From a virus (Duplodnaviria; Heunggongvirae; Uroviricota; Caudoviricetes), in IMG/VR virus record IMGVR_UViG_2874945390_000005: a stretch of DNA of 23,639 nucleotides, one strand, 5' to 3'. Positions 8,552 through 22,194 of this stretch are shown piece by piece (within the stretch, counting starts at the first letter, position 1; each line of letters starts with the position of its first letter). The position numbers were made by a program, and so were the translations under genes. The notes beneath the pieces were generated by a model. That model was given only the letters and a program-made list of their open reading frames with translations. It was not told the DNA's origin and did no database searches.

Positions 8552-8718
8552 AGCGTGAGCGGTAATTACGCAGGCGCGGGTCGATATATTCAGGGAATTT
8601 GTCTATTGTCGCTTTTCGCAACGGTCTCATTGCTGTTTCGTTTGTTCGGTCCTTTGAGGTAGCCTGAGTTTAACGGACACTCCTTCCTGAAATAGAATGG
8701 CATCAGAAGGAGCTAATA

Positions 8719-9021
8719 ATGAGCAGAAAAACCCAACGTTACTCTAAAGAGTTCAAAGCCGAAGCTGTCAGAACGGTTCTTGAAAATCAACTTTCGATCA
8801 GTGAAGGCGCTTCCCGATTATCCCTTCCTGAAGGCACTTTAGGACAATGGGTTACCGCCGCCAGAAAAGGGCTCGGTACTCCTGGTTCCCGCACGGTGGC
8901 TGAACTGGAATCTGAAATTCTGCAACTGCGTAAGGCGTTAAATGAAGCTCGCCTTGAGCGAGATATATTAAAAAAAGCAACAGCGTATTTTGCACAGGAG
9001 TCGCTGAAAAATACGCGTTAG
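8719..9021 (+). CDS. IS600 OrfA
   Basis: 100-aa ORF MSRKTQRYSKEFKAEAVRTVLENQLSISEGASRLSLPEG...; A7G slippery run near 8970-8980. Confidence 0.9.
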   Translation: MSRKTQRYSKEFKAEAVRTVLENQLSISEGASRLSLPEGTLGQWVTAARKGLGTPGSRTVAELESEILQLRKALNEARLERDILKKATAYFAQESLKNTR

Positions 9022-9056
9022 TCGAACAATGGCGACAACAATTTCCCATTGAAGCG

Positions 9057-9875
9057 ATGTGTCAGGTATTTGGTGTATCCAGGAGCGGTTATTACAACTG
9101 GGTACAGCATGAACCCTCAGACAGAAAACAAAGTGATGAGCGGCTAAAACTGGAGATTAAGGTGGCACATATCCGCACTCGCGAAACATATGGAACCCGG
9201 CGGCTCCAGACGGAGCTGGCAGAGAATGGCATCATCGTTGGTCGTGACCGACTGGCACGTCTTCGTAAGGAGCTAAGGCTACGCTGTAAGCAGAAACGCA
9301 AGTTCAGAGCGACTACGAACCCGAACCACAATCTGCCAGTTGCGCCAAATCTGCTGAACCAGACGTTCGCTCCTACAGCACCAAATCAGGTCTGGGTGGC
9401 GGACCTGACGTATGTTGCCACACAGGAGGGATGGTTGTACCTCGCTGGCATCAAAGATGTTTATACGTGCGAAATTGTCGGCTACGCCATGGGAGAGCGC
9501 ATGACAAAAGAGCTGACAGGTAAAGCCCTGTTTATGGCGCTCAGGAGCCAGCGCCCACCTGCCGGGCTAATCCACCACTCTGATCGAGGTTCACAGTACT
9601 GCGCATACGATTACCGGGTCATACAGGAGCAGTTTGGTCTGAAAACATCAATGTCGCGTAAAGGTAACAGTTACGACAACGCTCCGATGGAAAGCTTCTG
9701 GGGAACGCTGAAAAATGAGAGCCTGAGCCACTATCGTTTTAATAACCGGGATGAAGCCATCTCAGTAATACGGGAATACATTGAGATTTTCTACAATCGT
9801 CAGCGTCGTCACTCTCGTCTGGGGAATATCTCCCCGGCAGCCTTCAGGGAAAAATATCATCAGATGGCTGCTTAA
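9057..9875 (+). CDS. IS600 OrfB (DDE transposase)
   Basis: 272-aa ORF with an IS3-family integrase core (...HHSDRGSQYCAYDYRVIQEQFGLKTSMSRKGNSYDNAPMESFWG...). Normally expressed as an OrfAB fusion by -1 frameshift. Confidence 0.9.
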   Translation: MCQVFGVSRSGYYNWVQHEPSDRKQSDERLKLEIKVAHIRTRETYGTRRLQTELAENGIIVGRDRLARLRKELRLRCKQKRKFRATTNPNHNLPVAPNLLNQTFAPTAPNQVWVADLTYVATQEGWLYLAGIKDVYTCEIVGYAMGERMTKELTGKALFMALRSQRPPAGLIHHSDRGSQYCAYDYRVIQEQFGLKTSMSRKGNSYDNAPMESFWGTLKNESLSHYRFNNRDEAISVIREYIEIFYNRQRRHSRLGNISPAAFREKYHQMAA

Positions 9876-10282
9876 AAAAAGAACAAATGGTAGTGTCCGC
9901 TATTGCCAGTACACCTCATTGACTTGATGAAATTGTGCACTTCAACCGAGGTTTGCAGCGGCGCGTTACTGAAGCCTTTAGGCCACACCCCGAACTTCTC
10001 TTTGTAGGTATGAGCGCACCATCCGTCACTCAGTGGCTTACCTGTCGCGTTGCGGTAATTCTGATAGCCCTTGATCTCACTCCACCACCGCTGTTTTTCC
10101 TCGCGGCTGTATTCGCGTTTCCCTTTGTTTACGCGAGAGAGTTTTCGATCGCGGTCTGTTGCCACATCATCGCCACCAAGAGGACGAAACCCACATTTGG
10201 GACACATGTGTACACCAGCAGGCTTCATGAAGTGGCATTTGGGGCATTCTCTGGGAAGTTTTTCAGCTTTTAACCTCGCCAC
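9872..10282 (-). CDS. Zinc-ribbon protein (CPKC...CPKC), 3' end replaced by IS600 sequence; native part 9919..10282
   Basis: GTG start at 10282-10280 lies 20 nt upstream of the helicase stop. MARLKAEKLPRECPKCHFMKPAGVHMCPKCGF... The last 15 codons are read from the IS600 right end. Confidence 0.5.
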   Translation of the reverse strand: MARLKAEKLPRECPKCHFMKPAGVHMCPKCGFRPLGGDDVATDRDRKLSRVNKGKREYSREEKQRWWSEIKGYQNYRNATGKPLSDGWCAHTYKEKFGVWPKGFSNAPLQTSVEVHNFIKSMRCTGNSGHYHLFFF

Positions 10283-20158: not shown

Positions 20159-20379
20159 CAAATATGGTTTCCACTCTCAAAGACAAAGACAATCGCAGCA
20201 AAAACGTAAGCCAGAATCATGCAGATGATTATGGTTACAGCCAGAACGATTACCCTCCTTTCTGATTACTGAAAATAAGGCTCCCATTAATGCCAGCGCC
20301 TCTGTATGGTGCGGATGACCCGCGCAACTGCTCCGGTAGCTCCAAGGCGGAGGTGCTGGAAAATATCAAAATGAAGTGG

Positions 20380-21219
20380 TCAACAAAAACTGGCCACCGA
20401 GTTAGAGTTTTTCCAGTATCGATTTTCCGATTCGTTTGGGGGTAACCCACCGTTATATTCGTGCGGTCTTAGTGCGCTGTAATATCCAACGATATAGTCC
20501 GTTATGGCGTGAGCTGCCTCGCTGAAGCTTACGTAACCCACCACCGGCATCCATTCGTTCTTCAGACTCCTGAAGAAGCGTTCCATTGGGCTGTTATCCC
20601 AGCAGTTTCCGCGCCGGCTCATACTCTGTCTGATCTGGTATCGCCACAATAACTGCCGGAACTGCCTGCTCGTATAATGACTGCCCTGATCGCTGTGGAA
20701 CATCACCCCGCCGGGCTTACCACGGGTTTCCCATGCCATTTCCAGCGCTTTCATGGTGAGCCTGCTGTCCGGCGAGAACGACATGGCCCAGCCCACTGGT
20801 TTTCTTGCGAACAGGTCGAGAACAACGGCGAGGTACGCCCAGCGCTTACCCGTCCAGATATAGGTCACATCACCGCACCACACCTGATTTGGCTCGGTCA
20901 CGGCGAACTGCCTTTCAAGGTAGTTAGGGATAGCAACATGTTCATGACCACCACGTTTATACCGGTGAGTCGGCTGCTGACAGCTGACCAGCCCCAGCTC
21001 TTTCATGAGCCTGCCAGCAAGCCAGCGTCCCATCTGGTAGCCTCTCCGGGTTGCCATTGTGGCGATGCTTCTTGCTCCGGCCGAACCATGGCTGATGCCA
21101 TGTAGCTCAAGTACCTGACTGCGTAATACAGCCCGTCTGCCGTCTGGTTTTTCAGGACGGTTTTTCCAGTATCTGTAGCTGCTGCGATGAACCCCGAACA
21201 CTTGGCAGAGTGTGACCAC
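20380..21219 (-). CDS. IS911 OrfB (DDE transposase)
   Basis: 279-aa ORF ...[68 protein letters not shown]... Confidence 0.9.
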
Positions 21220-21245
21220 AGGATAATGCGCTCTGAGTTTCCCGA

Positions 21246-21548
21246 TTATCGAGAACTGTTCAGGGAGTCTGACATCAAGAGCGCGGTAGCCTTTTTTAAT
21301 ATTTCATTCTCCATTTCAATGCGTTGTAGCTTTTTCCTCAGCTTACGTATTTCGATTTGTTCTGGTGTTATCGGAGAGGCTTTTGGTGTTTTGCCCTGAC
21401 GCTCATCACGCAGTTGTTTGACCCATCTTGTCATTGTGGAAAGGCCAACATCCATAGCTTTGGCGGCATCTGCCACCGTGTATTTCTGGTCAACAACCAG
21501 TTGAGCGGATTCGCGTTTAAACTCTGCGCTAAAATTTCTTTTTTTCAT
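21246..21548 (-). CDS. IS911 OrfA
   Basis: [53 protein letters not shown]...; the ORF-track start at 21584 lies upstream of the probable ATG at 21548. Confidence 0.9.
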
Positions 21549-22194
21549 TGGAGCACCTGTGTTGTTCTGAGGTGAGCATATCACCTCTGTTCAGGTGGCC
21601 AAATTCAGTGTGCCACTTTACATTATCAAGTTGCTTGTTACGTGATGCCAAGATGTTCTGTTTGGCAATTTCACAGAGTTCTTCATCGCTCTTATCGGTC
21701 ATGTAAATAAACTGACCAGCACCTCTTGAAGCTTTAACCATCTTCACAATCCGGTATCCATCAGGAAGATTATTAATCACGTCTGGGATATTCTCAGGAA
21801 AAGTACCAAAACCATCATTATCTGTATATGTGAAGTAAACATACGGCTTTTGTGACAATTCATCCTGAATCTCAAATTCTGATGGCTCAATAGCTGATTG
21901 CATCAAGGTAACTTTGCTGTAAGCGTCATCAAGTTTAAGACGCTGTGCTTTTAGCAGTGGGTAATATTCACGCTCAAGATTAAATAATGCTTCACTCTTG
22001 CAAATATCAGGCATCTCTTGAGGTTCAGGAGTCACAAAGATGATTTCCTTTGGTGACATCTTTAGCTCTTGCTCAAGCTTAATTCTTTCATTGTGTTCTT
22101 TACGCTGAATAGTGATAGCTGGATGTTCAGTCTGTGGTGACCAGTCACCGAAGCTATCAATCTTTCTGCCGTTAATAAATAAATCGTTTGTCAT
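21529..22194 (-). CDS. Unknown protein in a low-GC block, 3' end replaced by the IS911 terminus; native part about 21622..22194
   Basis: ATG at 22194-22192 with GAGGAAA upstream ([44 protein letters not shown]...). The last 30 or so codons are read from the IS911 inverted repeat. Confidence 0.45.

Follow-up and report, generated by a model that had tools for sequence, protein, structure and literature searches.

Rearrangement and pseudogene formation driven by insertion sequences (ISs) are established features of Shigella genomes (PMC8072062, PMC7373316). The stretch of DNA analysed here, the 23,639-nucleotide virus record IMGVR_UViG_2874945390_000005 (hereafter the window, taken at its full length), is 100% identical to Shigella boydii CP026836.1, window position p corresponding to record position 379,845 + p. 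It holds the remnant of a lambdoid prophage, here called remnant P1, together with part of a different prophage remnant, P2. Within remnant P1, the block at 9919-20371, which carries helicase, cro, cI, hicAB, rha, recT and exo, is confirmed to be inverted relative to the stretch at 1-8654, and the locus does not differ in kind from the IS rearrangements already known in Shigella: multi-copy ISs, here the IS3-family elements IS600 and IS911, lie at its junctions, pseudogenes are present, and a large inversion keeps its flanks on the original replication strand, as judged from the coordinates of Escherichia coli K-12. A limited literature search returned general papers on Shigella rearrangement, among which the pair of events proposed below for the remnant in CP026836.1 was not found described.

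The closest counterparts of the block are found in E. coli Shiga toxin (Stx) prophages, which share 9919-20219 with the window at 95-98% identity. Those located in wrbA, such as the Stx1c prophage of strain 48 (L001) and the Stx2a prophage of NIID080884 (L002), carry the same module of helicase, cro/cI, Rha, GamL, RecT and exo, to which L001 adds the hicAB pair. These prophages are intact and canonical, with int on the exo strand, whereas the block in the window is inverted, truncated at either end and attached to an HK022-like int/xis, and it lacks late genes. Prophages with an HK022-type int at torS-torT (L015) resemble the other end of remnant P1, the int DNA and its downstream arm being 95% identical up to the core of the attachment site (att). 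In the window's genome, however, it is sibA next to mdtA (K-12 position 2,153,413), not torS, that lies past the core, and int is frameshifted. The Gin, Hin, Pin and Cin invertible segments offer a further likeness, in that a block lies between inverted repeats and both orientations occur among related strains, but here the repeats are whole 1.26-kb ISs rather than short crossover sites, and the flips destroy abc2 and recT. No invertase was found in or next to the block (8655-21621), the only recombinases being int and the IS transposases, and the resemblance to a programmed invertible segment is geometric only.

A split abc2 gene at the ends of the inverted block

Gene identities and strands were taken from the list of open reading frames (ORFs), Pfam scans and gene calls, RNAs from Rfam, and IS boundaries and flanks were read directly from the sequence. 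Positions 1-8654, from int to the C-terminal fragment of abc2 (abc2-C), are referred to as segment A, and positions 9919-20371, from the helicase gene to the N-terminal fragment of abc2 (abc2-N), as segment B or the block; coordinates are collected in Table 1.

The inversion is recorded in a single gene that is now found in two pieces. The last 126 bp before IS600 copy 1 gave a BLAST match to the 3' part of genes annotated as 'phage anti-RecBCD protein', and the 82 bp before IS911 matched the 5' part of abc2, on the opposite strand to the C-terminal fragment. As the two ends are complementary and face in opposite directions, they represent a single gene that was hit once by IS600 and once by IS911, and their opposite orientation is direct proof that the block between them was inverted. 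Alignment to an intact abc2 of 297 nt shows that about 89 bp from the middle of the gene are missing. Joining position 20371 to the reverse complement of position 8654 gives an arrangement collinear with one E. coli prophage, in which a DUF669-like gene, abc2, DUF2737, Ea22 and DUF551 lie on a single strand.

Intact relatives of the block were found by a megablast search of the whole window against complete E. coli genomes, in which coverage did not exceed 37% of the window, as the collection contains no Shigella. In the intact Stx prophages, the late genes, Q, nin, helicase and cro occupy one strand and cI, GamL, RecT, exo, Ea22, xis and int the other, with int beyond exo. An earlier reading of the sequence alone had placed int, xis and the Ea22-like gene of the window on the minus strand and cI, rha, the gam-like gene, recT and exo on the plus strand, and both the ORF list and the Pfam matches agree with it. 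Its proposal that the immunity, recombination and replication genes are inverted with respect to int-xis is borne out by the split abc2 and by the canonical order of the intact E. coli relatives, whose orientation is opposite to that seen here.

The same reading had put the breakpoints at IS600 copy 1 and IS911 and had seen no target duplication at either element; an abc2 fragment does adjoin each of them, and neither pair of flanks matches (Table 1). The range that it gave, 8655-21621, is correct at its start and one base too long at its end, as IS911 ends at 21620. Six IS copies are present in the window, and the two that lack a duplication are precisely those at the proposed breakpoints. 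With a 3-bp match expected by chance in about 1 in 64 cases, the duplications at the other four copies are meaningful. One of the four, IS600 copy 2, is a simple insertion whose excision restores the recT reading frame. The assignment to IS600 is supported by the length of 1264 bp, the ends TGAGG...CCTCA, the ORFs of 100 and 272 amino acids (aa) and the TAC duplication at copy 2, and a matching element in L002 is annotated 'IS3-like element IS600 family transposase'. Copies 1 and 2 bracket 7.46 kb (helicase, cro, cI, hicAB, rha and the N-terminal part of recT, recT-N) as direct repeats with 100% identity, and easy loss of this 7.5-kb helicase-cI-recT segment is predicted from that arrangement.

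Of the 1249 nt of the IS911 copy, nt 1-1247 match annotated IS911 elements with 100% identity. One of its ends adjoins the abc2 of remnant P1 and the other a gene of P2. The terminal CA of its left end is TA here (position 21619), where relatives with the same junction have CA; judging from the sequence, the mutated end probably no longer supports transposition.

Relatives, chromosomal flanks and a proposed history

The S. boydii and S. dysenteriae assemblies CP026824.1, CP027027.1, PSSP01, UYIS01, AMJQ01 and AAMJ02 are 99.5-99.9% identical to the window and have in common with it the junctions of the IS600 right end with the helicase gene, of abc2-N with the IS911 right end, and of the IS911 left end with a 236-aa gene of P2; PSSP01 (L048) also continues to ymdF and rut, like the window. 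The junction of the IS600 right end with the helicase gene was seen in L024, L028, L032 and L048, and in L032 and L048 it recurs with a different partner, the left end of the helicase-side IS600 adjoining recT at 17121 instead of abc2. As this junction is older and common to the relatives, IS600 copy 1 is best seen as a recombinant of two earlier IS600 insertions.

Independent support is available for the other junctions as well. That of abc2-C with the IS600 left end is present in Logan contigs L042, L044 and L045, that of abc2-N with IS911 is present in L032-L040, and that of IS911 with the 236-aa gene was found in L049, including the strain-specific terminal T; IS911 has the window's junctions in L032-L036, L039, L040, L048 and L049. 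Short-read contigs from ERR200292, ERR200293 and ERR200294 reach 28-32 bp into the IS before they end, and do so at three junctions, namely abc2-C/IS600, IS600/helicase and IS911/236-aa gene, the last again with the terminal T. The 221-aa protein at the IS911 junction has an identical match only in the source genome, the relatives differing by at least one residue; it was unusable for counting assemblies, and the DNA of the fetched loci was compared instead.

The relatives also carry the trace of a flip of their own. IS600 copy 2 and IS630 are absent from all relatives examined, and an extra IS600 is present in their recT, its two junctions sharing the triplet 17122-17124. Of these half-sites, one now adjoins the helicase end and the other recT-N, so what was a single duplication is now split, and the stretch from helicase to recT-N must have been flipped a second time between IS600 copies in the relatives (window-equivalent 9919-17124; loci L026, L027, L032, L033, L035, L036 and L048). 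Reversing this second flip yields the architecture of the window, and the inverted arrangement is therefore older than the divergence of these lineages. Because of the same split 3-bp duplication, L026-L028 were rejected as representatives of an ancestral canonical order. On the int side of the relatives, an IS600 fragment running from 9918 to 8978 and segment A from 8317 to 3 are collinear with the window, and 8318-8977, missing in L026 and L027, is replaced there by an IS30-like element and a second IS911.

The chromosomal flanks place IS911 in a second and much larger rearrangement. To the left of int, an 85-bp phage arm is followed by a match to K-12 that begins at 2,153,413, inside sibA, and continues with rising coordinates through sibB and mdtA-D; the att junction on the int side is located within sibA, beside mdtA (L025 12206-12221, about 70-85 bp to the left of window position 1). 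The last 2 kb of the window, on the right of IS911, belong to P2, whose gene set comprises a serine recombinase, a tape-measure protein, the 236-aa gene and an HNH gene, and whose E. coli counterpart is located between wrbA and ymdF. Past the right end of the window, the match to K-12 restarts at 1,067,687, inside wrbA, and runs upward via ymdF and rut. The K-12 coordinates rise outward on both flanks (from 2.15 Mb on the left and 1.07 Mb on the right), and such a head-to-head arrangement is characteristic of a single junction of an inversion that spans K-12 1.068-2.153 Mb. The midpoint of this interval on the K-12 map, 1.61 Mb, is close to the replication terminus, which we take to be at about 1.59 Mb, and an inversion with these endpoints leaves both flanks on their original replication strand. 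IS911 lies about 89 bp inside the inversion end of the block and links the block to P2 in wrbA. Since it lies inside that end and joins a different prophage, it marks a second, chromosome-scale inversion, and the involvement of two IS families here is explained by each marking its own event. With the IS600 and IS911 junctions attributed to separate events, the view of the sequence-only reading that one recombination event is insufficient and that the history was multistep also stands.

We suggest that remnant P1 was probably rearranged twice in succession, each time by homologous recombination between IS copies. Four things are observed directly, namely the split gene, the missing duplications, the common junctions and the flanking chromosome, and a course of events that would account for them can be outlined. 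At the start, P1 would have been located in sibA beside mdtA in the order late genes, helicase, cro, cI, recT, exo, abc2, Ea22, xis and int, with three ISs inserted: one IS600 in the helicase gene, at its 3' end, another IS600 of opposite orientation in abc2 near nt 172, and an IS911 at abc2 nt 82. Recombination between the inverted IS600 copies would then have flipped the roughly 10.5 kb between them, leaving IS600 copy 1 with flanks from two target sites and setting the helicase-to-abc2 block against int-xis. In a second step, the IS911 in abc2 would have recombined with an IS911 of opposite orientation within the 236-aa gene of P2, inverting about 1.09 Mb across the terminus between endpoints that are roughly equidistant from it in K-12 coordinates. 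This exchange would have joined abc2-N to P2, ymdF and rut, and the roughly 89-bp middle of abc2 would have gone to the other junction along with the second IS600 and the remainder of P1. The reciprocal junction, as we infer it, would read P2 left part, C-terminus of the 236-aa gene, IS911, 89-bp abc2 piece, IS600 and rest of P1. Had the order of the steps been reversed, the IS600 copies would have been direct repeats 1.09 Mb apart, the recombination of which would cause a deletion, and this argues that the local inversion came first. IS600 copy 2, IS630, the deletion in int, the insertion in the helicase gene and the CA-to-TA change in IS911 would be later, strain-specific changes.

A search with the P2 tape-measure protein gave one S. 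boydii match, an intact P2-like element at an unrelated locus, which is uninformative about the reciprocal junction. Another course, with P1 at torS-torT followed by one inversion and a deletion of roughly 40 kb, was ruled out by the sibA flank at att and by the outward K-12 flanks.

Several points tell against the two-step history. Probes for the middle of abc2 and for the C-terminus of the 236-aa gene matched neither the window nor any fetched Shigella locus, and it is a single complete assembly that links both junctions of IS600 copy 1 to one IS copy. The close relatives keep 16 bp of sibA past att and then enter an ipaH region, and one of them has torT-torC nearby. The presence of ipaH and torT-torC means that there were more events than the two modelled and makes sibA a tentative ancestral site for P1; the pattern of sibA, torS and ipaH suggests either an alternative attachment site or an Int-mediated exchange, followed by further rearrangement. 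Finally, the two abc2 fragments could in principle derive from two different prophages.

Alternative explanations

That last point belongs to a broader alternative, in which segments A and B came from two lambdoid prophages and were united by IS600 recombination, no single prophage having been inverted. Lambdoid early regions are mosaic, a Shigella genome holds several prophage remnants, the best E. coli matches of the Ea22 side differ from those of the block, each E. coli record covers 37% of the window or less, and an HK022-like int and a Stx-phage-like early region do not occur together in the E. coli relatives examined. The abc2 fragments are nevertheless complementary and non-overlapping (nt 1-82 and about 172-297), and joining them restores a gene order that is contiguous in E. 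coli. Segment A lacks immunity, replication and recombination genes and segment B lacks int, xis and the ea genes, as expected of complementary halves, and three close relatives hold A and B adjacent and collinear except for IS-bounded changes; we therefore regard an origin from two prophages as quite unlikely. An account based on transposition itself, through intramolecular transposition or IS-adjacent deletion or inversion by IS600 or IS911 and without homologous exchange, is also unlikely, if not to the same degree. Intramolecular transposition would likewise leave a junction IS without a duplication, and in the relatives both IS911 and the IS30-like element adjoin deletions (8318-8977, L026, L027). 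However, the junction of the IS600 right end with the helicase gene pre-exists in relatives with other left partners, which fits an exchange between established copies, and the half-sites of the relatives' recT IS600 (17122-17124) were parted by an inversion, a clear instance of recombination between resident copies at this very locus. IS3-family elements, moreover, move via excised circles, normally without inverting the flanking DNA, and such a pathway would not normally have inverted the flanks here.

In favour of a mis-join of the assembly across IS repeats of 1.25 kb, the two IS600 copies share 100% identity, each of the two IS families is multi-copy, and the exact IS911-junction protein occurs in one assembly only. 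Such a mis-join is made highly improbable by the recurrence of the junctions in other assemblies and read sets, every one having been seen independently in other loci or Logan read sets, and by other complete genomes with the same architecture save for one further IS600-bounded inversion. The source is also a single 5.1-Mb contig of an IS-rich genome, which implies long reads. Still less credence can be given to the idea that an unusual phage had this gene order natively, for which nothing speaks beyond the order itself: abc2 is broken at both junctions, and this split gene refutes it, while intact relatives are canonical and int, the helicase gene and recT are pseudogenes. We also think it very doubtful that the helicase-cro-cI-hicAB-rha-recT block is a recurrently flipping IS600 cassette whose orientation alters the expression of the repressor, toxin-antitoxin, antirepressor and neighbouring genes under selection. 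Two successive recombination events between resident IS copies thus remain the account that we favour.

Gene content and decay of the remnants

Table 1. Features of the window in order of position, with the evidence or state of each.
Feature	Position	Strand	Evidence or state
int, HK022-type	1-912	-	Pfam Phage_integrase; pseudogene; left end of segment A
xis (Exc)	1051-1269	-	Pfam Exc
ORF6N antirepressor genes (two paralogues)	1657-2010 and 3903-4262	-	Pfam; about 80% identical across their 5' parts
IS630	about 2712-3856		target duplication TA
DUF4222 gene		-	Pfam
IS2	about 5167-7807		target duplication TCCAG; in 3' end of DUF551 gene
IS629 (IS629/IS1203), nested in IS2	6310-7615		target duplication GGG
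Ea22/DUF551 gene	7791-8375	-	Pfam, gene calls
DUF2737 gene	8351-8518	-	Pfam; with Ea22/DUF551, last complete genes of segment A
abc2 C-terminal fragment	8529-8654	-	about nt 172-297 of 297; cut by left end of IS600 copy 1
IS600 copy 1	8655-9918 (1264 bp)	+	flanks CTT / TTG; no duplication
DEAD-box replication helicase gene	9919-11378	-	Pfam; pseudogene
cro-like gene, helix-turn-helix (HTH)	12273-12512	-	Pfam HTH_3; divergent from cI
cI (HTH and S24 peptidase)	12579-13337	+	Pfam HTH_3, Peptidase_S24
hicBA	13744-14339	-	intact hicA/hicB toxin-antitoxin pair, between cI and antirepressor region
isrK and C4 antisense RNA	14998-15186		adjacent Rfam matches
ASH/Rha	Rha 15281-15880	+	Pfam
KilR, GamL	after Rha, within 13744-16758	+	Pfam on gene calls
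recT, interrupted	16725-17375 and 18640-18993	+	split by IS600 copy 2
IS600 copy 2	17376-18639	as copy 1 (direct repeat)	flanks TAC / TAC; simple insertion in recT
exo (YqaJ family)	18990-19679	+	Pfam, E. coli comparison
159-aa gene	19679-20158	+	E. coli counterparts annotated DUF669 or hypothetical
abc2 N-terminal fragment	20290-20371	+	nt 1-82; cut by right end of IS911
IS911	20372-21620	-	flanks AAA / CAT; no duplication
P2 right part	21621..23639	-	opens with 236-aa gene without its last 137 bp; serine-recombinase type, in wrbA

Remnant P1 is no longer a functional phage. Compared with the intact 357-aa int of close relatives, its int has a 1-nt deletion near 961 that shifts the frame. Its helicase gene has a 1-nt frameshifting insertion near 10271 relative to close relatives and is cut by IS600 about 59 nt ahead of the stop codon, as seen from the 506-aa E. 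coli gene and the 501-aa gene of L028. With recT and abc2 interrupted as well, no late genes within the window, and one side running into another prophage, P1 does not qualify as a working lambdoid prophage, and its inversion is a scar rather than a mechanism.

The early region nonetheless retains several recognisable modules. In segment A, the second ORF6N paralogue is split by IS630 in this strain only. An Rfam match to sRNA-Xcc1 at 2051-2134 on the minus strand lies directly upstream of the ORF6N/P22_AR antirepressor gene; the ORF call at 1354-2136 probably over-extends this gene, the true start being 2010. The nested IS629 contains a match to the ALIL pseudoknot of Rfam at 6645-6761, and is present in CP027027.1 and absent in CP026824.1. 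Within the block, the isrK and C4 matches lie just upstream of and overlap the ASH/Rha antirepressor-like gene, an arrangement that, from its sequence, looks like an immunity-I module of the phage P1/P7 type within a lambdoid early region. On the P2 side, an inverted repeat at 22217-22306 is found just upstream of the truncated 236-aa gene and could be an operator or a terminator; its arms are 29 nt long and 90% complementary, and its spacer measures 32 nt. A tRNA scan of the window found none.

The locus is an ordinary case of an already known process, IS recombination being routine in Shigella, and its importance beyond bookkeeping is small. For annotators, it means that the region should not be handled as one prophage. 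The abc2-N/IS911/P2 junction is found in several S. boydii and S. dysenteriae genomes, where it could mark the lineage of the terminus-spanning inversion. With two IS families that record, on the history favoured here, two separate inversions, the locus offers a clean example of how IS expansion scrambles and kills the prophages of Shigella.

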